Assembly: GCA_029260215.1 (NCBI GenBank)
Contig: JAJDDQ010000039.1
Location: 48,313-112,312 of the forward strand
Direction of reading: 5' to 3'
DNA length: 64,000 nucleotides
DNA from: Phycisphaerae bacterium
GTDB lineage: Bacteria; Planctomycetota; Phycisphaerae; UBA1845
Part shown: piece after piece, positions 11,502-58,256 of the stretch
Layout of the letters: each line of letters opens with the position of its first letter
Numbering within the stretch: the first letter of the stretch is position 1
Program-made: the position numbers and the translations under genes
The notes under the pieces: model-generated
Databases searched by the model: none
Told to the model about the DNA's origin: nothing
The model's input: the letters and a program-made list of their open reading frames with translations, nothing else

Positions 11502-12248
11502 ATGCACCGCATCGTCTGTCTGTCAGCCATACTCGGAGTCATGACGACTATGGCCTTCGCCGGGGAAAAATCCGAACTTACTGACCCTGTCGAGATTCTC
11601 AAAAAAGCAGACGCAGCCGCCAAGGCGGTGACTTCTGTTTCTTACGATCTGGTGGCGGAAGGCACAGGCGCAGCCAAGGGCCGCATGGGCAAACTTGAGG
11701 GCAGCTATGTCCTCGTCGGGTTCGCCGATGGATTGCCCAAGAAATTTCGCGCGAAATTCAAGAGCAAGCATGGCGACACCGGAGAGATTCAAGACAAGAC
11801 CATCGGCGGTGACGGTGAGAATTACTACGTTGTCGATCATGTCACAAAAACCGTCTATCAGGATATGGACCCGACCGTACTCGGTTCATCCTTGCGCGTG
11901 GCGGGTGCCGGCTTCTTTGCTGAGTTCACACACCCCAACCCGTTCTCCGACGAGCTAAAGGGTAAGTCGCACAAGCTGATGGGCAGTAAGAGCGTCAACG
12001 GAGAAGATTGTTATGAAGTTTTTGTCGAATACGACACGTCGCGCGGGCAGAAGGCCGTCTGGTGCTTTTCCAAAAAAGACTTCTTGCCCCGCTCCCGAAA
12101 AGACATTTTCGCGTTCCCGGGCGGCGAGGAAGGCGGCATTATGAAAACCCTCAGCAACCTGAAGATCGATCCGAAGCTTGTTGACAAAGTCTTCCAGATT
12201 GGCAAGACGCCCGAGGGTTACAAGGAATCCGACGACTTCGCGCCGTAG
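11502..12248 (+). CDS. Secreted LolA-like / lipoprotein-sorting-fold protein (tentative)
   Basis: ATG 11502 is preceded by GGAG. Signal peptide MHRIVCLSAILGVMTTMAFAG. Size and sequence pattern resemble LolA/DUF2092-type proteins. Assigned by eye only. Confidence 0.55.
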   Translation: MHRIVCLSAILGVMTTMAFAGEKSELTDPVEILKKADAAAKAVTSVSYDLVAEGTGAAKGRMGKLEGSYVLVGFADGLPKKFRAKFKSKHGDTGEIQDKTIGGDGENYYVVDHVTKTVYQDMDPTVLGSSLRVAGAGFFAEFTHPNPFSDELKGKSHKLMGSKSVNGEDCYEVFVEYDTSRGQKAVWCFSKKDFLPRSRKDIFAFPGGEEGGIMKTLSNLKIDPKLVDKVFQIGKTPEGYKESDDFAP

Positions 12249-28399: not shown

Positions 28400-29062
28400 A
28401 TGACCCGACAAACCCAGCAACAACCAATCCGCGCCCTTGCCGTCGCCCTCGACGCCTGGCAGCCTGTTGATACCGACACGCTATGCGCGCAAGCATTCGA
28501 TGGCTTGGACCTTTCCGTCAATTCGTCTTCAGATATCACAGCCGAGACAATCCGCCGGAAGATTTCACCCTCCGTCCCAATCCTGTCCCTCACGCTCGAC
28601 CCGATTCCCCCCGACGTGGTAAGCGAAGCCCCCTCCCGGCGAAACGCGGCACTCGAATCGGTGGCTGGCTTCGTCGAGACAGCCGACCGCCTCGGAGCGT
28701 CATACATCTGCGTATCGCCCCCCATCGCGGCCTACGCCGACGCACTCAACGGCGCGCTTTATTGCATGCAGGAACTCGGCGACGGTGCAGAATGCGCAGG
28801 CATCTCACTGCTGCTGCGTGCTCCATGCAACGACTGCCTGCTTTCACCGGTCGAAACACGCTGCCTGCTCGAATCCCTGGCCCGTGCCAACGTCGGGCTT
28901 TGCCTCGAAATGTCAGCCTTAACAGGCGAAGGCCGTCTTGAAGACTGGCTTCAGACGAACGCACCGTTCATTCGGGCCTATCGCGGACCCGCCGCATCGC
29001 ACCACAAGCTCCCCCAGGCTCTGCGCGAAGCGAACATCCTCGCCATCACAAAAACTGTTTGA
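28400..29062 (+). CDS. Hypothetical protein (weak resemblance to xylose-isomerase-like TIM-barrel proteins)
   Basis: Codon-like ORF. Start placed at ATG 28400 because the ORF-track start lies inside repeat B3. The function call is weak. Confidence 0.45.
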   Translation: MTRQTQQQPIRALAVALDAWQPVDTDTLCAQAFDGLDLSVNSSSDITAETIRRKISPSVPILSLTLDPIPPDVVSEAPSRRNAALESVAGFVETADRLGASYICVSPPIAAYADALNGALYCMQELGDGAECAGISLLLRAPCNDCLLSPVETRCLLESLARANVGLCLEMSALTGEGRLEDWLQTNAPFIRAYRGPAASHHKLPQALREANILAITKTV

Positions 29063-30281
29063 TCAGCACCAGCACCACAACAGCGCCCGCCAGCCAGGGC
29101 AACGCATTGATGGCTGCGATGAGCACACGCACGCGATCATGCCGACCGCTCAAATGCGCCGGAGTGTCAGCCCGCGCGGGAAGCCCCTCGAATAACGAAT
29201 CGAACGACAGCAACCGGCATGCCTCCAATGCTTCCACCATGCGGTCAGCAGCCGCGTAACGATCGCCAGCCTCATTGGCGCACGCCTTCGTAATAACGTC
29301 GGCGACCCGCTTTATGTCCCAGTGCATGCCGCCGTCAAAGACCTCGACCGGCAACACCGGGAATCCCTTCGCGTCAGGCCCGACGAGCATCTCGAACAGC
29401 ACCCGCCCCATCGCGAACACGTCAGCCGTCTCATCCATCTTCCGATCAGGCGGCATGTACTCCGGCGTACCCACCTGAGACGGACCAGCCGTGTTGGCTG
29501 TCAACATGCCAATGTCCGCCAGCTTCGGCTGATGATCGACAAAAACGATATTAGCCGGCTTGATGTCGCGATGGGCCAACCCCGTCTCGTGCAATCGCGA
29601 CAGACCCCGCAACAAACGCAGCACAACCTCGATGGCGGTGTCCGGGCTTAGCGCGCCCTTGCGAATAACGCTGCGCAGCGTCAGAGGCCTGTAATCACGC
29701 GGTAATTTGTCATGCACCGGGCGACGCGTACCGTCGTCGTCCGCCAGTTCCATCGTGTAATACAACGCGGTTCCGCGCATGCCGACGTGGAAAATCTGAA
29801 TCAGGTTCGGATGACGGCGAACGCGGCGGCAGTATGTCTCCAGCGCCGTGGATTCCCGGCATTGCACATTCGCCGACTTCAAACGCGACAGGTCGATCGT
29901 CTTCAGCGCCCGATGCAGCCCGACGCGATCGCGCACCGCCCACACCGTCCCGAATGCACCCGAGCCGCACATGCGCACGCGATCGTAATCGGGAATATCC
30001 CACGAATAAACGTCTGCGTCAGCCCCAGCTGGCGGAAGCATGCGCGAATCAACCTCCACCGTCGAAGCCGTCGGATCGGCATGCGTGCGCGTATCGAAGA
30101 CCGCCTCACGCACCGCGCTGCGAATCACGCGCGAATCGAAATCCTCCCGGCGAAACCGTTCGAGGTGCTGGACACAGGTGTCACACGTATCAACATGCCG
30201 CCACAGCGCGTCCGATTCTTCATCGGGAACGTCGCCGGTTTCGAGGCGTTTCAGAATCGCCAGTTCCGGACATGCTTCCAT
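29046..30281 (-). CDS. Ser/Thr protein kinase with N-terminal zinc-binding anti-sigma (ZAS, H-x3-C-x2-C) motif and C-terminal TM anchor
   Basis: HVDTCDTC near the N-terminus. Hanks kinase motifs are present: GSGAFGTV, ALK, HRDIKPAN, DIG (DFG-like), GTPEYMPPD. C-terminal TM (INALPWLAGAVVVLVLI). Starts 1 nt after the ECF sigma stop. Confidence 0.9.
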   Translation of the reverse strand: MEACPELAILKRLETGDVPDEESDALWRHVDTCDTCVQHLERFRREDFDSRVIRSAVREAVFDTRTHADPTASTVEVDSRMLPPAGADADVYSWDIPDYDRVRMCGSGAFGTVWAVRDRVGLHRALKTIDLSRLKSANVQCRESTALETYCRRVRRHPNLIQIFHVGMRGTALYYTMELADDDGTRRPVHDKLPRDYRPLTLRSVIRKGALSPDTAIEVVLRLLRGLSRLHETGLAHRDIKPANIVFVDHQPKLADIGMLTANTAGPSQVGTPEYMPPDRKMDETADVFAMGRVLFEMLVGPDAKGFPVLPVEVFDGGMHWDIKRVADVITKACANEAGDRYAAADRMVEALEACRLLSFDSLFEGLPARADTPAHLSGRHDRVRVLIAAINALPWLAGAVVVLVLIKQFL

Positions 30282-30282
30282 T

Positions 30283-30852
30283 TCAAACGATTCCGTCGGC
30301 CAGCTCGTCCCAGTGCTTCTTGATGCGGGACATCACGCGATGCTTGGCTGCGTAGATTTGACTGGGCGTTACACCGAGGCGTGCGACAATCTCCGAAACG
30401 GGCAACTCATCCACCACGTACAACTCGAACGCGTCGAACGTCGTCTTGGCCACCTCGTCGCGTACCTGATTCAAACAGTACAGCAGGTGCGTTCGATTCC
30501 ACTGTCGCTCCCAAACCAGAGCGGGGTTCTCCTCCTTCGACTCAGCCTTGGCGAAATCACCCGTCCGCGCCCCGCGCTCCATGCGACGCTTGCGCAGTTG
30601 GTCGTTTACCTTGTTGTCGATCATCCCGTGCAGCCAGCCGCGAAAACTCTTGCGACGCTGAAAACCCTCGATCCCCGAAACCACAGCCGTCATGCACTGC
30701 TGGGCAATGTCCTCAGCCTCAGTCGAATTCAACCCGCGCGCAGCCGCATACCGCACCAACAGAGGCCTGTAGATGCGATCGAACTCCTCCCACGAGGCAC
30801 TGTCATCCAGGTCCTTGATGCGTTTGAGCAGGCTGAATCGCGTTTCGCTCAT
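30283..30852 (-). CDS. ECF-type RNA polymerase sigma factor (kinase-associated type)
   Basis: Region 2 (EDIAQQCMTAVVSGIEGF...FRGWLHGMIDNKVNDQLR) and region 4 (TFDAFELYVVDELPVSEIVARLGVTPSQIYAAKHRV). Confidence 0.9.
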   Translation of the reverse strand: MSETRFSLLKRIKDLDDSASWEEFDRIYRPLLVRYAAARGLNSTEAEDIAQQCMTAVVSGIEGFQRRKSFRGWLHGMIDNKVNDQLRKRRMERGARTGDFAKAESKEENPALVWERQWNRTHLLYCLNQVRDEVAKTTFDAFELYVVDELPVSEIVARLGVTPSQIYAAKHRVMSRIKKHWDELADGIV

Positions 30853-46092: not shown

Positions 46093-46860
46093 CTACGGCG
46101 ACGGAGGCGGCGAATTCGGATCGAACGGCGGTGGAATCTTCCAATCGCCCAGAGCAGCCACCATGTCCGAAACACCGATCGCCCGGGGCAGCGCGTACGA
46201 TTCCCCGAACGCATAGCCCGCAGCCGCACCATCCGCCGATGCGTTGCCGCGAATGTATTGAACAACCCTCTCCACGCGCTCCTCATCGAACTGCGACTTG
46301 TAGCAGCGCACAGCCTCAATCTTCCGATCGATCGTATCGGCGATGTCCACGACAAACCGGCAATGATAGTGCGTCACGTCCGCCGCCATCGGCACGGGAC
46401 GATAGACAAGATGATCGATACGGTGCGGCTTCGTGCCGTCGAACCGATCGTCCCACTTGGTCAACTGCGAATAAAAACGCGCCGCCTCCGTGATAAGCTG
46501 AGCCTGATAATGATCCGGCGATGCAGACGGCGTGCGACCAGCCATCGTGACCACGATCCCAGGCCTGTGCCTCCGAAAAACAGTAGCCACCCTGTACCGC
46601 GCAACCGGGCCGTCCATCAACTCACGATTCGGAAGATCGAGCGTTTCACAATGCGCCACGCCCAGAATCTCAGCCGCAGCAGCCGACTCCTTCGTCCGCG
46701 TCTCGAACGTACCGCGCGGCGTCGGTTCGCCGGTCGTCATATGCACCATGCCCACGCGATAGCCCTGATCGACGAGCTTCGCGATGGCACCCCCCATGCC
46801 GATTTCGAGATCGTCCGGGTGCGGAGCCGTGAAAATAATATCCAGTTCCTTGTCAGCCAT
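46093..46860 (-). CDS. PIG-L/LmbE-family deacetylase
   Basis: N-terminal APHPDDLEIGMGG motif and downstream His/Asp residues typical of LmbE-like deacetylases. Confidence 0.88.
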   Translation of the reverse strand: MADKELDIIFTAPHPDDLEIGMGGAIAKLVDQGYRVGMVHMTTGEPTPRGTFETRTKESAAAAEILGVAHCETLDLPNRELMDGPVARYRVATVFRRHRPGIVVTMAGRTPSASPDHYQAQLITEAARFYSQLTKWDDRFDGTKPHRIDHLVYRPVPMAADVTHYHCRFVVDIADTIDRKIEAVRCYKSQFDEERVERVVQYIRGNASADGAAAGYAFGESYALPRAIGVSDMVAALGDWKIPPPFDPNSPPPSP

Positions 46861-47038: not shown

Positions 47039-47449
47039 ATGAAACCCGGATTCGAACCAGGCATTACGCGCGAAGTGCAGGTCACCGTCACACCCGAAAT
47101 GTGTCCCGCGTTCGACGGAATCATTGTTCATCGGGTCTACTCCACATGGTCAATGGTGCATCATATGGAACTGGCCGCCCGGAAGGTGCTCGTCGATTTT
47201 CTCGAGGACCACGAGGAGGGAATCGGAACGCGCGTGTGCGTCGATCACAAAGCGCCAGCGGTCGTCGGAACGCTCGTGACGGTTCGGGCGGAGTTGGTAA
47301 AAGTCCGCCGGAACATCGCGATTTGCAAGGTGGCAGCTTGGGACACCGACCGTCTTCTCGGCGAAGGCGAGCAGCATCAAGCCGTACTCACCAGGGACAG
47401 CCTCGCCAAGATCATGGCCCGCGCATCGAATCAAAGTCTGAACGAATAG
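47039..47449 (+). CDS. Hotdog-fold thioesterase (FlK-like family)
   Basis: 136 aa. The pattern VTVTPEM......VHRVYSTWSMVHHMELAARK...GIGTRVCVDH.AP...G is typical of this thioesterase family. Confidence 0.8.
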   Translation: MKPGFEPGITREVQVTVTPEMCPAFDGIIVHRVYSTWSMVHHMELAARKVLVDFLEDHEEGIGTRVCVDHKAPAVVGTLVTVRAELVKVRRNIAICKVAAWDTDRLLGEGEQHQAVLTRDSLAKIMARASNQSLNE

Positions 47450-47598: not shown

Positions 47599-48486
47599 TC
47601 ATCTGCTCAAAGTTTCCCACAGCAGGGTCTTCGCGTTGAACAACGCATGCAGAACGATCGGCGCCAGCAGAGAACCGCTGCGCACATACAGCAAGCCAAG
47701 CAACACACCCAGCGCAGCCAGCGCTGGCACGACGTGCGGCTGCGGACTGTCGCCACCGCCCGCGTGGATCGCACCGAACACCGTGCCCGTAATCAAGACC
47801 GCCGCCCAACGACGCCCCAGAAGATTGGCCAAACAATTCTGCACCATGCCGCGGAAAAAAATCTCTTCCGCAACCGGCGCGATCAACACCGTGCCGATCC
47901 AAAGCGTCACAAGCGGCACCTCGCCCGCGCGCAACGCGTCGATCACATCGTGCTCGAAAACTTCATATCCGGGAAACCAGGCCGTGATGGAAAGAAGTGT
48001 CAGATTCAGAACAGCCCAGCAGATCGCCAGCGACGCAAGGAGATACACTCCGCCAAGCGCCGCCGAACGCATGGCACTGATGTCACCGAGCAGGAACCGC
48101 CCCGCCCCACCGTCCACCACGCGGCGTGCAACAACGAGGCAGGCCATCGCACCGAACAACTGCGCAACGTTGCCGCACCAGATCATCGACACGTCGCGCC
48201 GATCCTCAACCACCCAGCGCTGAACAGCCTCGGCCAAAATCGTCGCAGTCAACAACCAAACGAGCAGCGGCGCGAGCACCGCTTCCGGCGAAATGCGGTT
48301 CGGCGGAACGTGTGACACCAAAACCGAAGCGCACCGGGCACGAACCCAGCGCGAAACACCCGCCACGACGACCGCCGCGCCGAAGATGATCAAAAAACGA
48401 TCGGCAAGCTCAAGAACGTCAGTCACTACGATTCCGTGCAGCAAAGGGAACACCGGGGGAACCACGGCAAGCACCGCCGCCCACAA
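47599..48486 (-). CDS. CPBP-family intramembrane glutamic endopeptidase (CAAX protease / Abi family)
   Basis: Motif 1 EEIFFRG, motif 2 FGAIH, motif 3 HALFN, and multiple TM helices. TTG start 37 nt downstream of the small peptide gene. Confidence 0.9.
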   Translation of the reverse strand: MWAAVLAVVPPVFPLLHGIVVTDVLELADRFLIIFGAAVVVAGVSRWVRARCASVLVSHVPPNRISPEAVLAPLLVWLLTATILAEAVQRWVVEDRRDVSMIWCGNVAQLFGAMACLVVARRVVDGGAGRFLLGDISAMRSAALGGVYLLASLAICWAVLNLTLLSITAWFPGYEVFEHDVIDALRAGEVPLVTLWIGTVLIAPVAEEIFFRGMVQNCLANLLGRRWAAVLITGTVFGAIHAGGGDSPQPHVVPALAALGVLLGLLYVRSGSLLAPIVLHALFNAKTLLWETLSR

Positions 48487-48523
48487 TCGGCACGCCCTCC
48501 ACAGTCACCGAACGTTCGCGAAC

Positions 48524-48649
48524 TCAGAACGTGATATTGGAAAAAACGTCGGTCAACGATCCAAACACGAACGTCAGCAGGTTCTCAAGAAAGCCGAACA
48601 GCGCCGACAAAAACGTACTCAAGCCAAAATCCACCAATGAACCACCCAT
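48524..48649 (-). CDS. Unannotated 41-aa hydrophobic acidic peptide (paralog 1)
   Basis: Below the ORF-track size cutoff. ATG 48649 is preceded by AAGGAAG with an 8-nt spacer. MGGSLVDFGLSTFLSALFGFLENLLTFVFGSLTDVFSNITF. Same length and same C-terminal NIT+hydrophobic residue as the peptide at 48884-49009. Confidence 0.55.
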   Translation of the reverse strand: MGGSLVDFGLSTFLSALFGFLENLLTFVFGSLTDVFSNITF

Positions 48650-48677
48650 TTTGAATACTTCCTTATAGCTAGCGAAA

Positions 48678-48705
48678 ATCATATGTCAGCCGTGCCGACC
48701 GACAA
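48678..48705 (-). promoter_or_regulatory. Sigma70-type promoter for peptide 1 (and probably the CPBP gene)
   Basis: The minus strand reads TTGTCG (48705-48700), a 16-nt spacer, then TATGAT (48683-48678), about 30 nt upstream of ATG 48649. Confidence 0.45.
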
Positions 48706-48758
48706 CGTACGACCATTGTCCGCCCGCACGACGTGTCCGAAAAGGGGATACCACACAG

Positions 48759-48801
48759 CAAAAGAAAAATCCACTATGCGCGCATCGCGACGATAGTGGA
48801 T
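48759..48801 (-). terminator. Rho-independent terminator after peptide 2
   Basis: The minus strand has ATCCACTAT (48801-48793), a 15-nt loop, ATAGTGGAT (48777-48769), then TTTTTCTTTTG. Confidence 0.55.
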
Positions 48802-48883
48802 CGCTGATGATTGGAGAACCGCCGACCGGCACACGCGCCGCCATCAAGCGTTCAGTCAATCGATTGCATAACCCGCACCCAAA

Positions 48884-49009
48884 CTACAGGGTGATGTTGA
48901 GCAGGTCGTTAATGATGGTGGTGAGGGCAGCCAGGAAACCATCGAGCAACGTGCCGAAAGTCGCCTGAAACACATCGAGAATTCCACGAGAAATCGTATC
49001 AAAAAACAT
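48884..49009 (-). CDS. Unannotated 41-aa hydrophobic acidic peptide (paralog 2)
   Basis: ATG 49009 is preceded by TAGGAG with an 8-nt spacer. MFFDTISRGILDVFQATFGTLLDGFLAALTTIINDLLNITL. Located in the lowest-GC stretch of the window. Confidence 0.55.
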   Translation of the reverse strand: MFFDTISRGILDVFQATFGTLLDGFLAALTTIINDLLNITL

Positions 49010-49070
49010 GACAAAAACTCCTATTTCTTGTCTTTCCTACTTGGCTGTAACCGCGCCTACAATCGGCTTC

Positions 49071-49114
49071 TTGCCACGGAAGTGTATTCTTGACTGGCAA
49101 AAGGCTCTTGACAA
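49071..49114 (-). promoter_or_regulatory. Candidate promoter plus operator-like palindrome upstream of peptide 2
   Basis: The minus strand reads TTGTCA (49114-49109), a 17-nt spacer, then AAGAAT (49091-49086). This overlaps the palindrome TTGCCA-N18-TGGCAA (49071-49100). Confidence 0.35.
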
Positions 49115-49123
49115 GGGGTAATC

Positions 49124-50239
49124 CTAAATATTTTGCCCCGCGAAAAAAGCCGCCCCCATGCGGTCCGCCATCGGCTGATTGGAAAAAATCAACGGCAGGA
49201 TGTATTGCGTCTCGGTATTCGGCGGCCTGAGATATTCCGCCATCTCCGTACGCCAACGCGTGTTGAACTCCATCAGCACATCCTGCGGGCTGGGCGCACC
49301 GATCGCCTCATGGGCGACGTCAGCCGCGATTTTCGCCGACCACATGCCAGGGTAAATACCCTCCCCGCTGGTGGCTGACACAAATCCGCCCGCATCGCCT
49401 ACGATCAGCGTGCGCTTGGCCACGTGCGTGTCCATCGCCAACGCAACCGCCGCCGGCGTGGAAATCGCCTCGCTGCGGGCGGCGACGTCGCTCAGGTCAA
49501 CATCGATCAAATCGTGGGCCAACGCATGCTTGCACAGGGTGGTGATCTTGTGGATCGTCTCCGCCCGCTCGCCTCCCGTCTGCACGCTGATCGTCGCCCG
49601 ACCCCGACCAGACACCACAACACCAATGCCGCCGAAATTATCCAGACCGAGCACCACCGACACCTTCGGCGGGCCTGTTTTCACATCCTCCGCCTCAACA
49701 TGCGCTGCCCACCACCCCGAAGGAATACTGCCCGGACCGAGGCGAAGCTGATCCAGCAATTGCGATTTTCTCCCGGAAGCGAGAATCAGCACCGACCCCC
49801 GCAACGGCACCCCTCTCGACGGTTCAGCCGTCACAAATTCCTCGCCCAACCGGATTTGACCGATGGACATCGCGTCGTGAAACGACACCTCCGCCGACTC
49901 CGCAGCCCGGACGAGCTTCTCGTCGAACCCCGCACGGTCAATCAGATAACCCGGTGTCGACGGAAATTTCGGCGTCGCTGTCTTGGTGAAATCGGCGTTG
50001 AAAAACGCCACATTGTTGATCGGCACAGCGTCAAGATCCTTGAGCTTGACACCGATCTCGCCCAACAACGGCACCACGCAGCTCCCCAGCCAGCCCGCGC
50101 AAACGCGAGGCCGAGGATGCTTGGCTGCATCGATCAGCGCTACATGGCGATCCTTCGCCGCCATCGCCAAAGCGGCCGTCGCACCAGCCGGACCCGCACC
50201 GACCACGATCGCATCAAATTGAGCTTCCGCCTTACTCAC
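49124..50239 (-). CDS. FAD-dependent oxidoreductase, geranylgeranyl-reductase-like family
   Basis: N-terminal dinucleotide fold DAIVVGAGPAGATAAL, and LIVGDAGGFVSATSGEGI near the C-terminus, typical of the GGR/FixC-like family. Confidence 0.88.
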   Translation of the reverse strand: MSKAEAQFDAIVVGAGPAGATAALAMAAKDRHVALIDAAKHPRPRVCAGWLGSCVVPLLGEIGVKLKDLDAVPINNVAFFNADFTKTATPKFPSTPGYLIDRAGFDEKLVRAAESAEVSFHDAMSIGQIRLGEEFVTAEPSRGVPLRGSVLILASGRKSQLLDQLRLGPGSIPSGWWAAHVEAEDVKTGPPKVSVVLGLDNFGGIGVVVSGRGRATISVQTGGERAETIHKITTLCKHALAHDLIDVDLSDVAARSEAISTPAAVALAMDTHVAKRTLIVGDAGGFVSATSGEGIYPGMWSAKIAADVAHEAIGAPSPQDVLMEFNTRWRTEMAEYLRPPNTETQYILPLIFSNQPMADRMGAAFFAGQNI

Positions 50240-50266
50240 TGCCGCTCTTCCCTTGACCGCATGGGT

Positions 50267-51616
50267 CTATTCAATGTCCAGTAGTTTCCACAACGCCTGC
50301 TCAACCTGTGAGAATCGCGCGAGCGACTGCTCAAGCTCCTCGCGCACCGCCGCAAACGCCGGATCGTTCACCGGCGTCTCCCCGCCGTTGGCCTCCACCA
50401 TCGCAGACAGACGCTCCGTCAAATCGTCCAGATGGGCCGACGCCTCGGTGAACTCCCGAACCGCGTCCAGAATATACGCCTGCTGCGATTCGGTCTCAGA
50501 CGGCTTGTGGATCAGTCGCCACGGTTGACGACGCAGGTCTTTCGCAACGGCTTTGAGATGCTCACTCGCCTCCTTGGCATTGTCCACGATCGTAACAGCC
50601 CGGTCCGCACCCAGCACAGCCACGCGACGGACCTTGTCGCTGGCCACGTTCAGGTCTGCCAGCGCGCGGTTGATCCCGTCAGCTGCTTCGTGCGCTTTCC
50701 TCAACAGGCTCTTGGCCCGCGTCGGATCGAATTCGTCCACGATCGCCGGCACGACCGATTGGTCAAGCGTGCCGACCATGTGCGTCACACCTTCGACCGT
50801 ATGACGCACATCCGCACGGTTTTCATCGATGATCGCGACGACGCCCATCAGCGCCAAATCAACCTGATCCAATCCACGATGAACTTTGGCCAATATCGAC
50901 CCATCGTCGCCCGCCTGAAGCTGCGCGCGCATCGCACCCGTCACCGCGTTGACGTTGGTCAGAATAGAGTCAATCTTGTGAATCAGAGCGGCTTTGCGAT
51001 CGGGATCCACCGTATCCTTCAAATCCTCGGTCATCGCGTTCACGTCGTCGAGGCTGACGTGAATCTTCGCAATTAGCGAGTCCGCCATAGACGGGTCAAG
51101 CTGATTCTTGATTTGCGACAGCAGGCTGCCCGGGTCATCCGCGTCGAATTCACGTGAAATACTGCTGAATTGAGCGGCGAATCCCGCGACTTCCGCATAC
51201 AAAGGGCCGCCGTCCGTCGCCCTCCGCTCAGACGTCCCGCGATTCACAATGCGCAGCTGCCCCGTATCGCCCAGCAACGAACCCGACACGGTGATCGAGC
51301 AATCCTCGCGTAAGCCGACGGCTGTGCGCACCTCACCCACCAGCTCGAAATACAAAAAATTCTCAGGCCCGCCCTCTTCACGCGCGGGGGCTTCCAGAAG
51401 CATCACCCGTTGAATACTGCCGACCTGTTGCGGGCCGCAGATAATCGGTGCCCCCGGCTTGATCCGCGGAACGTCCTGATCGTGCCCAATCCGCACCACG
51501 ATAGGTTCGGTCTCGTCGAAACTCTGCCCGCCGATGTACATCACGCCGACGACGAACAGAACCAGACTGAGCGTCACCGCAAGGCCAAGCTTAAAGCTGT
51601 CACGCTGCCGTCCCAT
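50267..51616 (-). CDS. mlaD: MlaD/MCE-domain protein with long helical C-terminal extension
   Basis: N-terminal TM (LGLAVTLSLVLFVVGVMYIGG), then an MCE beta-barrel-like region (IKPGAPIICGPQQVGSIQRV), followed by about 300 aa of helical repeats. Confidence 0.82.
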   Translation of the reverse strand: MGRQRDSFKLGLAVTLSLVLFVVGVMYIGGQSFDETEPIVVRIGHDQDVPRIKPGAPIICGPQQVGSIQRVMLLEAPAREEGGPENFLYFELVGEVRTAVGLREDCSITVSGSLLGDTGQLRIVNRGTSERRATDGGPLYAEVAGFAAQFSSISREFDADDPGSLLSQIKNQLDPSMADSLIAKIHVSLDDVNAMTEDLKDTVDPDRKAALIHKIDSILTNVNAVTGAMRAQLQAGDDGSILAKVHRGLDQVDLALMGVVAIIDENRADVRHTVEGVTHMVGTLDQSVVPAIVDEFDPTRAKSLLRKAHEAADGINRALADLNVASDKVRRVAVLGADRAVTIVDNAKEASEHLKAVAKDLRRQPWRLIHKPSETESQQAYILDAVREFTEASAHLDDLTERLSAMVEANGGETPVNDPAFAAVREELEQSLARFSQVEQALWKLLDIE

Positions 51617-51702
51617 TCAAGTCCTTCGATTCAAAAAGAAAACAATGACTCATCATTCCTGCGCGATGCGTCCCTATTTCGGTTTTTCAGGGACGACTCT
51701 TT

Positions 51703-51875
51703 CCTGCCCCCTCCTTGCGACGATAAGCATTCCCTCTTTAACACCGGGCATCCCAATCTCTTCCCCCCTTGCAAAGGGGGGATACAGGGGAGTCCGGGAC
51801 CGGAACAACATTTCACTTCGCAAGAAGAACCTCCCCCAGCCCCTCCTTGTCAAGGAGGGGAGGAAGAGAACATTC
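51703..51875. repeat. Family A repeat copy 2 (no recognisable terminal inverted repeats) inside the mla operon
   Basis: Contains CCCCCCTTGCAAAGGGGGGATACAGGGG and CCCCTCCTTGTCAAGGAGGGGAGGAAGAG. Lies in the 312-nt gap between mlaF and mlaD. Confidence 0.65.
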
Positions 51876-51928
51876 GTCACGGCGCAGCCGCATCATAGCG
51901 GCTTTCGCACTTCGCGAGAACGGACCGA

Positions 51929-52831
51929 CTACTCGCCCGCGATAATCAACTTCTCAAATTCCGTCATGCCGTCGGCATCGGTGATAGGCCCTTCGCTCGC
52001 GCCCCGCAGAAACTGGTGCATCAACCGCTCGTCGCGCCCGTCGAGCGTCCCGGGGTCGGCATCGCGGATGCGCTCAAACTCACAACGGTCGCCGATCTTC
52101 AACACCCGCCCCTTGTCCAGCATGACCATGCGGTCCGCAATGCGAAAAGCCGAATCCATTTCATGCGTCACCACGACGCTCGTCACCCGCAACTTCCGGG
52201 ACAAATCCATCATCAACTCGTCGATGGCTGCACTGGTAACCGGGTCCAAACCCGCCGACGGCTCGTCGTAGAAGAGAATCTCCGGGTCGAGCGCCGTCGC
52301 CCGTGCCAGACCCGCACGCTTTTTCTGGCCGCCCGAAAGCTGCGACGGCATCTTGTTGCGATGGGCCAGCATCTTCACCTGCTGAAGCTTAAGCGTCACA
52401 ACGATGTCGATAATCGACGCATCGACATACGAATGCTCAATCAACGGCAACGCCACATTCTCCGCCAGCGTCATCGAGCCGAACAATGCTCCGCTCTGAA
52501 AGAGGATTCCGTAACGCTTGCGCAGCTCGTTCAAGCCATCCTCATCCATGAGCGCGATGTCCGCCGGCTCGCGCATGTTCTTGGTAAAAAACAGGATATG
52601 TCCGCCATTGACGGAGTATTCACCGATCAGACAATTCAGCAGCGTGCTCTTGCCGCAACCGCTGCCGCCCATAATCACCAGCGTCTCGCCGCGGCGAATA
52701 TCGAACGTCACACCGTCCAGAACGCGGATCACACCGCCATCGCCCGTCGGGAATTCCTTGACCACGTCGCGAACCGAAATCGCCAGATCAGTCGCCGATC
52801 CCCGAGCGCTCGCCACCTCAGACTCCTTCAA
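51929..52831 (-). CDS. mlaF: ABC transporter ATP-binding protein, MlaF-like
   Basis: Walker A GGSGCGKST, signature LSGGQKKR, Walker B ILFYDEPSAGLD. 4-nt overlap with mlaE. Confidence 0.9.
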   Translation of the reverse strand: MKESEVASARGSATDLAISVRDVVKEFPTGDGGVIRVLDGVTFDIRRGETLVIMGGSGCGKSTLLNCLIGEYSVNGGHILFFTKNMREPADIALMDEDGLNELRKRYGILFQSGALFGSMTLAENVALPLIEHSYVDASIIDIVVTLKLQQVKMLAHRNKMPSQLSGGQKKRAGLARATALDPEILFYDEPSAGLDPVTSAAIDELMMDLSRKLRVTSVVVTHEMDSAFRIADRMVMLDKGRVLKIGDRCEFERIRDADPGTLDGRDERLMHQFLRGASEGPITDADGMTEFEKLIIAGE

Positions 52832-53694
52832 ATTCCCAACGCATAGAAAACGGCAGTGAACATGGCATCGATTCCGATCAACGCCACAATCGACTTGACC
52901 ACCGTCGCCGTCGTCGCCCGACCGACGCCCTCCGCACCGCCCGAAACGTTCAATCCTTCATAGCACGCGATCAACGCAATCACCGCACCGAACACACAAG
53001 CCTTGACCAAACCCGTGACAAAATCCGTCATCTTCAAGGCGTCCAGCGTCAGGTTCACATACAAAGACGGTGGGACATCCAGAATGAACACGGAAGTAAG
53101 GAACCCGCCGAAAACACCGATGTAGTCCGCCATCACCGTCAGAACGACAATCATCCCCGCCGTGGCCAACACGCGCGGGGTGACAAGAAACCGTACCGGG
53201 TTCAGGGCGTGTGCGCGTAACGCCTTGATTTCCTCAGCCTCCACCATCGCCCCGATCTCAGCCGCGATGGACGCGCCCGCGAAACCGCTCAGCACGATCC
53301 CCGTCAGCAGAGGCCCCAACTCACGCACCACGGCGATGCCGACCACGTCCGCCACACGCTCCAACTGCCCATACGATTGAAGCGTCGGCGCCATCTGCAA
53401 CGCCAGGATCATGCCGATGAAGATTTGAACCAGGAAAACAATCGAGATGCTCCGAACACCAACCCGCACCATCTGGTGAACCAACGCAGGCCAACCGAAT
53501 CTGATCCGCGACTGAAACACACCGCGAAAAGCCCAGACCAGCGCATCGTAAAACAGATAGGTCACGCCGCCGACAAAGCTGAGAATCGACACAAGACGCG
53601 ACGCCTGATCCCGCGTAATCGAACCCACGCCCGAAATCGCGCGATAAGCGATGTGGCTGCGACCGGCGGCGGATTCGGAAGACGGGTCACTCAT
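52828..53694 (-). CDS. mlaE: ABC transporter permease, MlaE family
   Basis: Conserved MlaE segments are present: VRELGPLLTGIVLSGFAGASIAAEIGAM, AL.A..LNPVRFLVTPRVLA, and the GGAEGVGRATT motif. Confidence 0.9.
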   Translation of the reverse strand: MSDPSSESAAGRSHIAYRAISGVGSITRDQASRLVSILSFVGGVTYLFYDALVWAFRGVFQSRIRFGWPALVHQMVRVGVRSISIVFLVQIFIGMILALQMAPTLQSYGQLERVADVVGIAVVRELGPLLTGIVLSGFAGASIAAEIGAMVEAEEIKALRAHALNPVRFLVTPRVLATAGMIVVLTVMADYIGVFGGFLTSVFILDVPPSLYVNLTLDALKMTDFVTGLVKACVFGAVIALIACYEGLNVSGGAEGVGRATTATVVKSIVALIGIDAMFTAVFYALGI

Positions 53695-54029
53695 GCAGCC
53701 GGAATCTCACTTTCCGATTCGGCGACCGTGAAGAATTTATCCAGGCGCGTGATTTCCAGGACACTCCGCACACGCTCACCCGGGCTGAGCAACACCAGAG
53801 TCTGATTCTTTTTCTTAAGCCTGCGAAACACCTCGACCAGCGTGCCCACACCGGACGAATCAATGTAACGCACTTCCGACAGATCAAGCACCAGTTGCTT
53901 CAAATCCCCCGCACATATCTTCACAAGCCCCTTGTGAAACTCCGGTGCCTGGTGCATGTCGATCTCGCCGGAAAGCCGAACCGTCGTCGTCGCACCGTCC
54001 TGCGTAACTTCTTTGATGATCTCACTCAT
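53691..54029 (-). CDS. STAS-domain protein (anti-sigma-factor antagonist / MlaB-like)
   Basis: LVLDLSEVRYIDSSGVGTLVEVF carries the SpoIIAA-type DSSG phosphorylation motif. 4-nt overlap with mlaE. Confidence 0.9.
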   Translation of the reverse strand: MSEIIKEVTQDGATTTVRLSGEIDMHQAPEFHKGLVKICAGDLKQLVLDLSEVRYIDSSGVGTLVEVFRRLKKKNQTLVLLSPGERVRSVLEITRLDKFFTVAESESEIPAA

Positions 54030-54471
54030 GGGGCGAAAGCCTTTTGAACATGTCCAGTTGCATCCCGCCGCCGTCGGCAGGAGCGTACGACACCTCGTCC
54101 ATCACCGTTCTGATGATGTGTACACCCAGCCCGCCCGGGCGTACATCGTCCAGATTCCGGCCGACGATCTTCGCCGGATCCACCTGCTTGCCGAAGTCCC
54201 GGATCGTCACGCGAATACCCGCGCCTGTATCCGCATCCGACAATACCCGGCTGATACACACATCGATCGGCTTGTCGCAGGGGCCGCCATAACCGTGACG
54301 AATCACATTGGTAAGCGCCTCATCGACCGCCAGCATGATTTGTCCAATCGCGTCCTCGGCGAACCCGGACGACTGCGCGACCCGGTCCACCTCGATCCGC
54401 ACCGAGGCTAACGCCTCCGGATCACTGGCGATGCGCAATCGGATGCAAACTTCGTCCGACAAAGCCGTCAC
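54022..54471 (-). CDS. RsbW/SpoIIAB-like anti-sigma regulatory Ser kinase (HATPase_c)
   Basis: N-box-like LAVDEALTNVIRHGY and G-boxes (RDFGKQVD, PGGLGVHIIRTVMDEV). Overlaps both neighbouring genes. Confidence 0.85.
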   Translation of the reverse strand: MTALSDEVCIRLRIASDPEALASVRIEVDRVAQSSGFAEDAIGQIMLAVDEALTNVIRHGYGGPCDKPIDVCISRVLSDADTGAGIRVTIRDFGKQVDPAKIVGRNLDDVRPGGLGVHIIRTVMDEVSYAPADGGGMQLDMFKRLSPHE

Positions 54472-54890
54472 CTCTTCGGAACCGCTTCAGGGGCGGTGTC
54501 GCCAGTCTCGGAACGCACCGTCAGATGCAACCGCCAAGCCTCAACCGCCCGGCTGCGCTGCTCGGCATCGTCCGCATAATCGTAACCCAACCTCATACCC
54601 GTCAGCTTCTCCAACGCAATGATGGCCGCAAAGCGAACAGCCGAATCCTCGTCCTCGAGACGGTCCACAAGCGCCGCCACACGATCGACATCGCCCGCGC
54701 GAGCAGCCTGATGAATCGCACGAACCCGCTGCCCCGCGTCAACCGAGGAAATACCCGTCCCCTCAGGATGGACGGACCGACCGCATCCCGCGCACAATAG
54801 AGAAAGACCGGACGCGACGCACCAGGGCACGACGAGCGCCGAAATCCGCAAACGGGAACATGCTCGGCTGATTCGGTTCATGGGAATCAC
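54468..54890 (-). CDS. HEAT-repeat lipoprotein
   Basis: Lipobox LLCAGC. HEAT-like helices (RVRAIHQAARAGDVDRVAALVDRLEDEDSAVRFAAIIALEKLTG). Confidence 0.7.
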   Translation of the reverse strand: MIPMNRISRACSRLRISALVVPWCVASGLSLLCAGCGRSVHPEGTGISSVDAGQRVRAIHQAARAGDVDRVAALVDRLEDEDSAVRFAAIIALEKLTGMRLGYDYADDAEQRSRAVEAWRLHLTVRSETGDTAPEAVPKR

Positions 54891-55007
54891 GGCGGTCGTC
54901 GATTATAGGGGTCGCCCAATAGCGTGCAAATGCTTTATTGAAACCGACTTCTGATTCTCAAACAGCCCGGCGACAACGCGCCGATTTCGAAAAAGGGAGA
55001 CCGTTTC

Positions 55008-55943
55008 TTGGCCAACGAGCCTTACACAATCCTTCAGCCGGACCGCAATCACCCCATGTGGACCGAAGCCCTGCGGCTCGCCGTCACCTCCCCTGACGCC
55101 GGCCCCCGGCAGGCAGACCAGAACATCCGACACCTGCTCGAATCCGCAGCCGTTCAAAAAATGACCCTTCGCCCGTTTTGCCTCGTCCGCAACCCCCAGC
55201 CGATCGAAGCCTCAATCATCGCATTGCGATCACCAGGCCGAACGGCGATGCTGCTCATAGGCCTGCGTTCGGAAGAAAAACCGCCCGAAGCCCTCAAAAC
55301 GCTGATCGAAACGACCGCCCGCGAACTCGCCGGCGAAGATGTCGTCCTCCTGCAATCGCTCGTAGCCCCCGAGCAAATCGCCATAGCCACCAGCCTGCGT
55401 GGCACCGGGTTTACCTATCTTGCGGAATTGGTCTACATGGAAAACCCGATCCGCAACCAACGGCCCAATCGCCCCAGCCCGCACAATCTTCGCCATCTTG
55501 CCTATTCTGACGCGCTGCACGGGCAATTCGTCTCAGCCGTGGACCTCACCTATCGCGAAAGCCTCGATTGCCCAGGGTTGAGCGGCACGCGCGACCCCCA
55601 CGACGTCGTCCTCGGGCATCGCCACACCGGAGATTGCGACCCTGTGCGGGACTGGCATCTCGCCTTGATCGACAACGAGCCTGCGGGCGTGTTGCTGCTC
55701 TCGCGCGTTTGCGGTCGCCCGCTTACCGAGGTCGTTTATCTCGGCGTCGCGCCCGCGGCGCGCGGCAAGGGTGTTGGCGATGCGTTACTCTCGCTCGCGT
55801 TTGACGTTGCGCGCAAAAGCAAGTCCCGCGCGATCACATTGGCCGTCGATCGCGCCAACACGTTTGCGCGCGACCTTTACGCCCGCTGGGAATTCTCACC
55901 GATCGCAAGCCGCCGGGCATGGATTCGTCGTATGCCTTTGTGA
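55008..55943 (+). CDS. GNAT-family N-acetyltransferase
   Basis: Acetyl-CoA binding motif A region (VVYLGVAPAARGKGVGDALL) in the C-terminal half. TTG start. Confidence 0.78.
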   Translation: MANEPYTILQPDRNHPMWTEALRLAVTSPDAGPRQADQNIRHLLESAAVQKMTLRPFCLVRNPQPIEASIIALRSPGRTAMLLIGLRSEEKPPEALKTLIETTARELAGEDVVLLQSLVAPEQIAIATSLRGTGFTYLAELVYMENPIRNQRPNRPSPHNLRHLAYSDALHGQFVSAVDLTYRESLDCPGLSGTRDPHDVVLGHRHTGDCDPVRDWHLALIDNEPAGVLLLSRVCGRPLTEVVYLGVAPAARGKGVGDALLSLAFDVARKSKSRAITLAVDRANTFARDLYARWEFSPIASRRAWIRRMPL

Positions 55944-56262: not shown

Positions 56263-57678
56263 ATGGACCCAAGAGTAAACGAGCTTCACGATCGAATCGC
56301 CCAAAAAGTCGGCCCCCAGCGGTACAAGGTCTGGTTCAAGGGGACGACCGAGTTCGCCTTCGCCGACGAATTCGTCAGCGTGAGCGTTCCGAATCAGTTT
56401 GTCGGAAGCTGGATCGAAAAACACTTCGTGGAGGTCATCCGCAGCATTTCCTCGGACCTCGCGGGCAAAACGCTCGACGTGGCGTTTGTGATCGATCCCG
56501 AACTTGCGAAAAACCTGCGTAAAAAACAGCCCGATTCGCAGGTGGACTTCGTCACCAACAATCCCGAGCGCGAAGCCAGAGCACGCAAGAAGCTCGGCTC
56601 GCCACCCCCCGCCGCTGTGCCCGATCGCTCCTTCGCAGAATTCGTCGTCGGCGAATCGAATCGGCTGGCCTACACCACGGCCATCTCCGTCGCGGAAGCG
56701 CCCTCGGGCCGGCAGTTCAACCCGCTGTTCATTCACGGCGGGTGCGGAATCGGCAAGACGCACCTGCTCCAGGCCATCTACCACCGGCTCAAGGAAGCCC
56801 TGCCGAACAAGACGTGTCGCTATCTCACCGGCGAGGATTTTACAAACAATTACATCTTCGCGCTCAAATCGGGAGAGATCGATTCGTTTCGCCACCGCTA
56901 CCGCAACGTCGATGTGTTGATCATCGACGACGTCCACTTTTTCTCGAACAAAGTCGGTACGCAAAACGAGTTCCTGCACACGTTCAACGCCATCGACATC
57001 GGCTGTCGTCAACTGGTGCTGGCTTCGGACGCCCATCCCAAAATGATCAGCCAGATGTCCGAATCGCTCGTGACGCGCTTCGTGTCCGGCATGGTCGTCA
57101 AGGTCGAGTCGCCCGACTACCAGACGCGAGCCGAAGTTCTGCGTCGCCGGGCCACCAAAATGAAATGCGACGTGCCCGAGCCGGTGATCCAATACATCGC
57201 CGAGCACTGCCAAGCCAACATCCGCGAACTCGAAGGCGCGCTGTACAAGCTCGTGCTGTTGGCCAGCGTCACGCAGAAGCCGATCACGTTGTCGCTCGCG
57301 GTTCAGGGTTTGCAGGACCTCATCCAGAAGACAACGTCCATCGTGCGTCTGTCCGACATCGAAAGCGTCGTGTCGATCTTCTTCGGGCTGAACCCAGCCG
57401 ATCTGCACACGTCGCGTAAGTCGCGCACCATCGCCTTGGCCCGTGGGGTGGCCATGTATCTCGCACGGCAGAGTACGGACATGAGTTTTCCCGAAATCGG
57501 GCGCTTTATGGGCAACAAGAATCACTCCACGGTCCTGCTGGCCTGCCGGCGTATTAAGAATCTGGTGAAGGAAGACAGCATGGTCAAATGGCTGACGGCG
57601 GCGGGCGAGCGGGAGATGTCCATTCGTGCGGTGCTCAGCGAGTTGGGAGAACAGTTGGGGCAACCGATTTCGTTTTAG
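56263..57678 (+). CDS. dnaA: Chromosomal replication initiator protein DnaA
   Basis: Domain I (YKVWFKGT..), AAA+ Walker A GGCGIGKTHLLQA, Walker B LIIDDVHF, and the domain IV DNA-binding signature (IALARGVAMYLARQSTDMSFPEIGRFMGNKNHSTVLLACRRI). Confidence 0.97.
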   Translation: MDPRVNELHDRIAQKVGPQRYKVWFKGTTEFAFADEFVSVSVPNQFVGSWIEKHFVEVIRSISSDLAGKTLDVAFVIDPELAKNLRKKQPDSQVDFVTNNPEREARARKKLGSPPPAAVPDRSFAEFVVGESNRLAYTTAISVAEAPSGRQFNPLFIHGGCGIGKTHLLQAIYHRLKEALPNKTCRYLTGEDFTNNYIFALKSGEIDSFRHRYRNVDVLIIDDVHFFSNKVGTQNEFLHTFNAIDIGCRQLVLASDAHPKMISQMSESLVTRFVSGMVVKVESPDYQTRAEVLRRRATKMKCDVPEPVIQYIAEHCQANIRELEGALYKLVLLASVTQKPITLSLAVQGLQDLIQKTTSIVRLSDIESVVSIFFGLNPADLHTSRKSRTIALARGVAMYLARQSTDMSFPEIGRFMGNKNHSTVLLACRRIKNLVKEDSMVKWLTAAGEREMSIRAVLSELGEQLGQPISF

Positions 57679-58020: not shown

Positions 58021-58256
58021 GTAACAGGTCAGCCGTATGCAATGTCATATGACGATAAACCCCGCAGAGACGCTACGATTGCCCTCTTCCTCCCCTCCTT
58101 GCGAAGGAGGGGCCGGGGGAGGTTCTTCGTGCGAACCGAAGCGTTACTCCGATCAAGACCCCCCTGTATCCCCCCTTTGCAAGGGGGGAAAAGATCGTTT
58201 CCCGTCGCAAGCGAGGGCAGGTCGTGGCTTGGCATTGCACATGGCTGAAGAGTTAC
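58021..58256. mobile_element. MITE-like element (family A copy 3, inverted relative to copy 1)
   Basis: Left end TAACAGGTCAGC (58022-58033), right end GCTGAAGAGTTA (58244-58255). Interior hairpins CCCCTCCTTGCGAAGGAGGGG and CCCCCCTTTGCAAGGGGGG. The right end overlaps the stop codon of the 58253-58741 gene. Confidence 0.6.

Follow-up and report, generated by a model that had tools for sequence, protein, structure and literature searches.

The window analysed here, a 64,000-nucleotide (nt) stretch of the genome of a Phycisphaerae bacterium (contig JAJDDQ010000039.1, positions 48,313 to 112,312 of the forward strand), carries on its minus strand, between positions 49124 and 54890, a cluster of seven open reading frames (ORFs) in which a kinase/STAS protein pair of the partner-switching type is embedded among the genes of an MCE-type ATP-binding cassette (ABC) transporter. 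The genes follow one another in the order HEAT-like lipoprotein, RsbW-type kinase, STAS protein, MlaE, MlaF, a 449-residue MCE protein and a flavoprotein resembling geranylgeranyl reductases (GGR), and the ORF read-out of the window returns all seven where a preliminary description of the same DNA, made from its letters, had put them. That description had the genes running head to tail with overlapping stop and start codons, and both the coordinates and the junction sequences agree with it: the overlaps, read from the sequence, amount to 4 nt between the HEAT and kinase genes (GTGA), 8 nt between the kinase and STAS genes (ATGAGTGA) and 4 nt each at the STAS/mlaE (ATGA) and mlaE/mlaF (TTGA) junctions. 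The MCE gene and the flavoprotein gene are spaced by 27 nt.

Upstream of the cluster, a sigma-70-like promoter sequence, TTTGCA-17-TATAAT (positions 54902-54930, minus strand; 10 of 12 consensus positions), ends 12 nt 5' of the GTG start of the HEAT gene. This putative promoter, called from the consensus match alone, likely drives the operon and would give a near-leaderless transcript. The cluster strand holds one terminator-like match, a marginal 5-bp stem within the HEAT ORF (54823-54811); the terminator scan found no such site in the gap between mlaF and the MCE gene, and the next minus-strand terminator-like sites beyond the cluster are near 48.7 kb.

The kinase/STAS pair and the transporter core

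The second gene of the cluster (54022-54471, minus strand) encodes a single-domain GHKL serine kinase of 149 residues. Its assignment to the RsbW/SpoIIAB type, already made in the preliminary description, is supported by a HATPase_c_2 match (E=1.8e-27) and by alignment with RsbW and SpoIIAB, both of which it matches in the PDB (RsbW 6m36_A, E=8.6e-10; SpoIIAB, E about 3e-4). The N-box (EA..NVI.H.Y.G), G1 (D.G) and G2 (RPGG.G.HI) motifs are at least 90% conserved in 33 sequences, namely that of the window and 32 orthologs, and these ATP-binding motifs align with those of RsbW and SpoIIAB, which indicates, as far as sequence can tell, an active ATP-binding enzyme. A database search returned more than 1,700 clusters of kinase homologs, whose named sources are all Phycisphaerae or other Planctomycetota, bar one bin labelled Gammaproteobacteria.

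The following gene (53691-54029, minus strand) codes for a single-domain STAS protein of 112 residues (STAS, E=5.6e-24), and the intact DSSG phospho-site motif that had been noticed in it is confirmed by the alignment of its Ser58 with the phosphorylated Ser58 of SpoIIAA. The protein passes the threshold of the anti-sigma-antagonist superfamily model TIGR00377 (87.8 bits, cutoff 53.45), and it matches TM1442 (E=3.7e-14), RsbV (1e-9) and SpoIIAA (5e-9) in the PDB. Searches of Pfam and NCBIfam found no DNA-binding domain in either the 149-residue kinase or the 112-residue STAS protein.

The genes for the permease and the ATPase, likewise named in the preliminary description, hold up under family searches. 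MlaE (52828-53694, minus strand, 288 residues) is an ABC permease of the MlaE family (PF02405, E=1.1e-69; TIGR00056, E=2e-61), and the MlaF-like ABC ATPase (51929-52831, minus strand, about 295-300 residues; ABC_tran, E=9e-30) has as its top NCBIfam match MlaF PRK11831 (E=2.5e-47, under the equivalog cutoff). The C-terminal extension of the ATPase carries a motif, QFL.G...GP, that is at least 90% conserved in 38 orthologs. The start of mlaF is ambiguous (52816-52831, minus strand): besides the TTG that overlaps the mlaE stop codon (TTGA) there is, 15 nt farther on, a GTG with a perfect AAGGAG spaced 6 nt before it; the public annotation of a near-identical contig (locus L045, see below) gives a product of 299 residues.

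The 449-residue product of the next gene (50267-51616, minus strand) has no relevant match in Pfam, NCBIfam or the PDB when searched as a single sequence, and its designation as an MlaD with a long helical extension, although right, needed an ortholog profile and a fold search to substantiate. The profile of 23 orthologs matches 13hr_I (E=2.3e-8), MlaD (about 1e-3) and, over residues 7-282, 8fed_B, a 'Virulence factor Mce family protein' of the Mycobacterium smegmatis Mce1-LucB entry (1.8e-7). PF02470 is weakly matched in 14 of the 23 orthologs, and Mce4_CUP1, the family of the Mce4 helical region, in 7. The AlphaFold model, built on 16 database homologs, has an N-terminal transmembrane (TM) helix, a confident MCE beta-barrel domain at about residues 36-143 and a helical region of some 300 residues, which is of low confidence and poorly placed in the monomer. 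With this model as query, all 50 of the 50 Foldseek matches listed are MCE proteins (chains of Mce1 entries and MlaD); among them, ranks 1-6 are taken by M. smegmatis Mce1 chains (8fed/8fee/8fef; E down to 2e-9) and MlaD appears first at rank 7, with core TM-scores of up to 0.70. Because profile and fold searches agree on MCE proteins, we take the protein for a divergent needle-type MCE protein, which by both searches is closer to mycobacterial Mce1 than to the short MlaD. A single MCE gene is present in the cluster, and the assembly is therefore presumably a homo-hexamer.

Conservation of the arrangement in related genomes

The neighbourhood was compared in 51 loci, designated here by L numbers: 11 were retrieved through the kinase or fusion proteins and 39 through MlaE in species-representative genomes, and one, L045 (GCA_024278775.1), comes from what is essentially the genome of the window itself. 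The other 50 loci are relatives, all of them from metagenome-assembled genomes or metagenomic contigs; they are mostly Phycisphaerae, their range covers the Planctomycetota sampled, and some labels are probably due to mis-binning (such as 'Alphaproteobacteria' for L013). A STAS gene lies directly 5' of mlaE in all 44 informative loci, at MlaE identities of 49-76% and amid unrelated flanking genes. The HEAT-like lipoprotein is found in 38 of 40 informative loci, and mlaF and the MCE gene directly follow mlaE on its 3' side in 33 of 40. Recurring as it does in dozens of genomes with differing flanking genes, the arrangement is far beyond chance.

In two loci, L040 and L042, mlaF and the MCE gene lie 5 kb upstream of mlaE. 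In two others, L002 (8685-13777) and L044 (9674-14869), mlaE is followed by the gene for an RNase HII-like protein of 320 residues and then by that for a protein of about 1,350-1,390 residues with a weak match to the alpha-2-macroglobulin MG10 domain; that these genes might be divergent forms of mlaF and the MCE gene was rejected on account of the RNase HII-like and macroglobulin-like character of their products, and mlaF and the MCE gene of these two genomes must be encoded elsewhere.

In the relatives it is mlaE, and no sigma factor gene, that accompanies the kinase/STAS pair. The statement of the preliminary description that the operon has no sigma factor gene thus extends to the clade: none is conserved near the cluster in the 50 related loci, the sigma factor genes found near it in L004 and L044 being sporadic. 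The sole sigma factor gene of the window, which is of the extracytoplasmic function (ECF) type (Sigma70_r2; 30283-30852, minus strand), is some 23 kb away from the cluster and does not accompany it in other genomes; a gene for a Hanks-type Ser/Thr kinase (29046-30281, minus strand) comes directly after it, the two forming a sigma-kinase pair.

Of all 44 loci, 33 have the kinase gene; among the 36 retrieved via MlaE, the unbiased subset for its frequency, 24 have it. In the 12 kinase-less loci, no relic of a kinase was detected upstream of the STAS gene or anywhere in the fetched loci, which extend, as far as the contig permits, up to 7 kb on each side of mlaE, and in the 11 of them in which a HEAT ORF was found the gap between the HEAT and STAS genes measures -22 to 249 nt. 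On a rough neighbour-joining tree of MlaE, the deepest branches carry the kinase, and loci without it fall in at least five separate places. Because of this distribution, the kinase would be ancestral in the sampled clade and would have been lost at least five times independently, with the STAS protein never lost, as the sequence comparison implies; retained wherever the kinase has gone, the STAS protein should serve the transporter in some way that does not need the kinase. An unlinked kinase could be present in the kinase-less genomes.

The serine aligned with Ser58 is present in every ortholog of the STAS protein. Three kinase-less loci have DSAG in place of DSSG and keep the first serine. 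The idea that Ser58 is kept solely alongside the kinase was rejected, the serine being kept in all loci with or without a kinase, so that this test does not discriminate. The stretch V.Y.DS.G..TL, which comprises the phospho-loop and the start of helix alpha-2, is as well conserved in loci lacking the kinase as in those that have it, so that this surface of the STAS protein is constrained by something besides the kinase.

Relatives of the STAS protein were also searched exhaustively among 1.8 billion representatives, and the best 150 were examined for fusions. The closest relative of the STAS protein of the window is a single-chain kinase::STAS fusion of 279 residues. Two further such fusions were found, and the three, 267-279 residues long and mutually divergent, belong to three divergent lineages (L049:499-1338, L050:6001-6804 and L051:6001-6834). 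Each is encoded directly upstream of mlaE, in a cluster of the form HEAT-[fusion]-MlaE(-MlaF-MCE). The N-box, the G2 motif and the serine are kept in all three; L051 has DSSA instead of DSSG, and no DxGxx G1 motif was found in the L050 fusion. No STAS-MlaE fusion occurs among the 150 closest STAS relatives.

A gene for an FHA protein with a SpoIIE-family (PP2C) phosphatase domain stands on the same strand directly after the MCE gene in L004 (10949-12643) and L048 (11707-13380), and L046, of the same sub-clade, has at 11807-12181 an FHA-only remnant. In L047 and L048, a protein of about 1,950 residues with Hanks-type kinase and FGE-sulfatase domains is encoded convergently beside the phosphatase site. 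This Hanks-kinase neighbour and the FHA domain hint at cross-talk with Ser/Thr kinase signalling.

The outer genes of the cluster and its surroundings

The first gene of the cluster (54468-54890, minus strand) encodes a protein of 140 residues, for which the earlier name of HEAT lipoprotein is sound in one half and weak in the other. The lipoprotein call is strong, since a hydrophobic N-terminus and, behind it, a [LVA][SAG]GC lipobox recur in about 35 orthologs; the HEAT call is weak, the HEAT_2 match (E=1.6e-5) falling under the Pfam cutoff. The AlphaFold model, computed from the single sequence, is all-helical but uncertain, with a predicted local distance difference test score (pLDDT) of 58 (65-79 over residues 50-130), and the protein is predicted to be periplasmic and lipid-anchored, with a short alpha-solenoid. 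A Pfam search gave no match to the PqiC family.

The last gene (49124-50239, minus strand) encodes an FAD-dependent, GGR-like oxidoreductase of 371 residues (TIGR02032, E=3.5e-37; FAD_binding_3, E=1.3e-8). Its likeness to GGR, pointed out in the preliminary description, extends over the full length of the TIGR02032 model (positions 1-297 of 297); strict family membership does not hold, as the score of 128.7 bits stays below the cutoff of 158.8. Matches in the PDB are weak and are to flavin-dependent halogenases, their best stretches lying in the N-terminal 130 or so residues. The gene is found behind the MCE gene in half of the loci scored (15 of 30), and its product is best described from these comparisons as a GGR-family-like, presumably accessory protein linked to the transporter in part of the clade. 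The proposal that this neighbour points to an isoprenoid or modified-lipid substrate is weak, because the gene is linked in 15 of 30 loci and scores under the family cutoff.

The intergenic gap of 312 nt between mlaF and the MCE gene (51617-51928) holds, as had been reported, a repeat. It is one of three copies in the window, 82-84% identical, of an interspersed element of about 125 nt (9790-9896, plus strand; about 51756-51877, plus strand; 58075-58195, minus strand) with two GC-rich hairpins, CCCCCCTTGCAAAGGGGGG and CCCCTCCTTnnnAAGGAGGGG, and an RNA fold z-score of -2.6. The element has no Rfam match, looks like a repetitive extragenic palindrome (REP) or miniature inverted-repeat transposable element (MITE), and was not found in the orthologous gaps, bar one partial match of 42 nt (83% identity) in L017. 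A role as a regulatory part of the operon was considered and rejected, given the interspersed copies, their absence from orthologous gaps and the lack of a terminator or Rfam signal; the repeat was inserted into the gap between mlaF and the MCE gene, which it makes unusually long, and does not belong to the system.

On the upstream side, dnaA (56263-57678, plus strand) is divergent to the cluster, with a GNAT acetyltransferase gene (55008-55943, plus strand) in between, and the synteny of dnaA, the GNAT gene and the cluster is found in 16 related loci. The cumulative GC skew is lowest at about 60-62 kb of the window, and the window therefore probably spans the replication origin region. Downstream, 637 nt (48487-49123) with promoter- and terminator-like matches and no convincing gene separate the flavoprotein gene from that of a CAAX (Rce1-like) membrane protease (47599-48486, minus strand); the public annotation of L045 places two ORFs of 41 residues within the equivalent interval. 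The CAAX protease gene also comes after the flavoprotein gene in L001 and L005. It is followed in the window by genes for an FlK-type thioesterase (47039-47449, plus strand) and a PIG-L deacetylase (46093-46860, minus strand). Farther out are encoded, at 39199-44217 (plus strand), a protein of 1,672 residues with an M12B reprolysin-like metalloprotease domain and a proprotein-convertase P-domain, which is also present in the near-identical L045, and, at 37218-38831 (plus strand), a protein with response-regulator receiver, GAF and HD (HD_5) domains that may act in signalling of the cyclic-nucleotide phosphodiesterase type.

Possible phospho-control of the transporter and its alternatives

The E. 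coli transporter MlaFEDB has a STAS subunit, MlaB (Thong 2016, PMC5016091; Kolich 2020, PMC7367683). Thr52 of MlaB is at the centre of the interface with MlaF, the surface equivalent to the STAS phospho-loop and helix alpha-2 contacts MlaF, the substitution T52E weakens or loses MlaF binding, and phosphoregulation of MlaB was proposed by Kolich et al. (PMC7367683). As in this system, the genes for MlaE, for an MlaF whose C-terminus is extended, for an MCE protein and for a small STAS protein of the cytoplasm stand together in the cluster described here, and the canonical STAS phospho-site, which in MlaB is on the MlaF-contacting surface, is occupied by a Ser/Thr. The two differ in that MlaB is a truncated STAS domain encoded last in its operon, whereas here a full-length RsbV/SpoIIAA-type protein is encoded just before mlaE; in that MlaD is short and the MCE protein here is long (449 residues, needle type); and in that neither MlaC nor MlaA is encoded in the present cluster. 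For proteobacterial mlaB we know of no kinase, co-encoded or otherwise.

In Brucella abortus, the permease MpcE of the Mpc (Mla-Pqi chimeric) system is a STAS-MlaE fusion described as MlaB-homologous, and the same operon encodes a long needle-forming MCE protein and a lipoprotein; in its accessible part, the report on this system mentions no kinase (PMC12436622). MlaE and MlaF homologs, a long MCE needle, a lipoprotein and the order STAS-then-MlaE are common to Mpc and to our cluster (PMC12436622). The STAS domain of MpcE is fused N-terminally to MlaE, whereas here the two are separate genes in the same order with a 4-nt overlap; the lipoprotein is PqiC-like in Brucella and HEAT-like here, and the phyla are different. 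Two independent Rosetta-stone fusions, kinase::STAS in the Planctomycetota and STAS-MlaE in Brucella, would thus link the kinase to the STAS protein and the STAS protein to MlaE. With mycobacterial Mce1 (PDB 8fed/8fef) the cluster shares a TM helix, MCE domain and long helical needle, MlaE-like permeases and an MlaF-like ATPase; Mce1 has six different MCE subunits, two YrbE permeases and no STAS protein, as opposed to the single MCE gene found here. The kinase/STAS pair itself is akin to RsbW-RsbV and SpoIIAB-SpoIIAA in having a GHKL kinase beside a single-domain STAS protein with Ser58, and in some relatives a linked PP2C phosphatase, and is unlike them in that no sigma partner is found in the operon or conserved nearby, the module is part of a transporter operon and some lineages keep the STAS protein after losing the kinase.

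The explanation that we favour, and think somewhat probable, is that the cluster encodes an MCE lipid transporter whose MlaB-like STAS subunit is under dedicated phospho-control. The data above document what the genes are, how their linkage and motifs are conserved, where fusions occur and that the kinase was lost repeatedly; from them we infer phosphotransfer, binding of the STAS protein to MlaF/MlaE, the sign and direction of regulation and the lipid substrate. The cluster would specify a lipid ABC transporter that spans the envelope in the manner of Mce1 and Mpc. Its parts would be MlaE2F2, a long MCE needle that is presumably a hexamer, and the periplasmic HEAT-like lipoprotein, with the full-length STAS protein, translationally coupled to mlaE, as a cytoplasmic MlaB-like accessory subunit. 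The RsbW-type kinase would phosphorylate Ser58 of the STAS protein. By analogy with E. coli MlaB, the unphosphorylated form would bind and stabilise the MlaF/MlaE complex and, by analogy with MlaB T52E, the phosphorylated form would be released from it, turning the transporter off. A PP2C phosphatase would reverse the phosphorylation, encoded in the cluster as the FHA-PP2C protein in some lineages and unlinked or unknown in this genome. The kinase would be an add-on regulator, and kinase-less lineages would run the transporter with a constitutive STAS subunit. Whether a complete phospho-switch, consisting of the kinase, the STAS protein and in some lineages the FHA-PP2C phosphatase, was co-opted to control assembly or ATPase activity of an MCE transporter is, in our judgement, about an even bet. 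The preliminary description had the pair dedicated to the transporter and not to a sigma factor; this came through every computational test applied, among them the refuting condition which that description had itself set, linkage to a sigma factor instead of mla genes in relatives. In its favour are the 44 of 44 loci, the fusions, the FHA-PP2C genes and MpcE, and the canonical STAS protein and dispensable kinase set its limit.

Several observations weigh against this explanation. A kinase of the RsbW type usually binds a target protein as well, and for this one the partner could be a sigma factor encoded elsewhere in the genome. Searches of the 64-kb window with phmmer and jackhmmer gave no PP2C gene. 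The kinase is missing from 12 of the 36 MlaE-seeded loci, i.e. it is dispensable; its frequency overall is inflated, about a quarter of the loci having been found via the kinase or fusion proteins, and the MlaE tree behind its history is, as stated, rough. The STAS protein fails the mlaB_1 family model NF033618 (26.8 bits, cutoff 90) and matches chain K of 7ch8, a 'STAS domain-containing protein' of an Mla-complex entry, at E=3.4e-3, compared with 1e-14 to 1e-9 for anti-sigma antagonists; on such scores it is an antagonist of the RsbV/SpoIIAA type and not a member of the MlaB sequence family, and the comparison with MlaB is proposed as one of functional equivalence, not of family membership. 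Ser58 is also kept in kinase-less lineages, and its conservation alone is therefore no proof of a phospho-role; Thr52 of E. coli MlaB is required though no phosphorylation of it is known. Finally, mlaF and the MCE gene do not adjoin mlaE in 7 of 40 loci, so that the tightest unit is HEAT-kinase-STAS-MlaE, and for this reason the contact of the STAS protein could be MlaF, MlaE or both.

The same genes can be read in other ways. Canonical as they are, RsbW-like in the one case and RsbV/SpoIIAA-like and under the MlaB cutoff in the other, the kinase and the STAS protein could perform conventional partner switching on an unlinked target, the kinase being an anti-sigma (or anti-X) factor, the STAS protein its antagonist and the pair co-expressed with the transporter and an envelope regulon. 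Planctomycetota genomes are rich in sigma factors, and an ECF sigma lies 23 kb off in the window; yet no sigma factor gene is conserved near the cluster in the 50 loci, those of L004 and L044 are sporadic, and the ECF sigma of the window has its own Hanks kinase. That the STAS gene remains beside mlaE in all 12 kinase-less loci would make no sense if its sole job were to antagonise the kinase, and in Brucella the STAS domain is fused to MlaE, which leaves this reading rather improbable. The wiring might also be reversed, with MlaFE holding the STAS protein according to transport state or lipid load and the released STAS protein engaging the kinase to act on another effector, the MCE system thereby serving as a sensor of envelope lipids. 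The genomic ties of the STAS protein to the transporter and to the kinase fit such a sensor equally well, as do the typical habit of RsbW-type proteins to sequester a target and the want of a linked phosphatase in most loci, but we consider it unlikely: the cluster has no conserved gene that might encode a downstream effector, the kinase::STAS fusions favour a self-contained kinase-substrate unit over a diffusible messenger, and the retention of the STAS protein in kinase-less lineages means that signalling is not its sole role. Both readings are weakened because the STAS protein outlives the loss of the kinase and the loci show no other conserved partner.

Some RsbW-like proteins act mainly through binding, and an inert kinase that merely sequesters the STAS protein, with no phospho-switch, would be compatible with the G1 variant DFGKQ and with the L050 fusion, in which no DxGxx G1 was found. 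The Asn and His of the N-box, the Asp and Gly of G1 and the GG.G of G2 are nonetheless at least 90% conserved (n=33), Ser58 is invariant, and the PP2C genes linked in two loci imply a real phospho-cycle, all of which makes an inert kinase quite unlikely. RsbW-like kinase/STAS pairs at the head of an operon can control its transcription, as CapK/CapS do (PMC13373217), and the present pair lies near the predicted operon promoter, so that the STAS protein might be a repressor of the adjacent operon released on phosphorylation. CapS needs a winged helix-turn-helix (wHTH) and CapK a helix-turn-helix (HTH) for this (PMC13373217), however, and the two proteins of the window are bare single domains encoded by operon genes 2 and 3, not by a divergent regulator pair. 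In view of this lack of any HTH or other DNA-binding domain on the STAS protein or the kinase, a CapK/CapS-type transcription switch was rejected as highly implausible.

Partner-switching-like modules with non-sigma outputs are known, the SypE/SypA module of Vibrio being one of them. In Anabaena, phosphorylation of a STAS protein in the HenR/All4160/Alr3423 module controls a non-sigma effector (PMC13555669), and CapK/CapS is a further module of this kind (PMC13373217). The effectors of HenR, SypE/SypA and CapK/CapS are an enzyme, biofilm formation, a repressor or a toxin, and none in the literature searched is an ABC transporter or a lipid-transport system. STAS subunits of MCE transporters (MlaB and the MpcE fusion) and non-sigma partner-switching modules are thus already known. 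What is apparently new is a dedicated RsbW-type kinase, sometimes with a PP2C phosphatase, associated with the STAS protein of an MCE ABC transporter: our literature searches (partner switching with Mla or MCE; MlaE with kinase) returned no prior description of a kinase wired to the STAS protein of such a transporter. Of the 17 Planctomycetes genomes in a published phylogenomic survey of Mla, 16 were scored as lacking MlaB, and the survey, in its accessible part, mentions no kinase; with MlaB so scored, the STAS subunit described here has been largely overlooked.

The post-translational regulation of Mla/MCE transporters is an acknowledged open question, and no kinase of MlaB is known (PMC7367683). 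The present cluster offers a candidate kinase for such a STAS subunit through its overlapping genes, through fusions in some lineages and through a linked phosphatase in some. A specialist would not be shocked by this, MlaB phosphoregulation having been hypothesised in 2020; the arrangement, conserved across the sampled Planctomycetota clade (mostly Phycisphaerae), is a natural system for that idea, which four or five small proteins, soluble or reconstitutable, would suffice to test, with the kinase-less sister lineages as natural controls. If phospho-control of the STAS subunit is true, the cluster would be the first example in nature of the MlaB phosphoregulation proposed then, and the FHA domain of the linked phosphatase would tie lipid transport to Hanks-kinase signalling. 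Partner-switching logic would be extended to a new class of effector, the ABC transporter, and its output in these bacteria would be a membrane transport machine and not a sigma factor.

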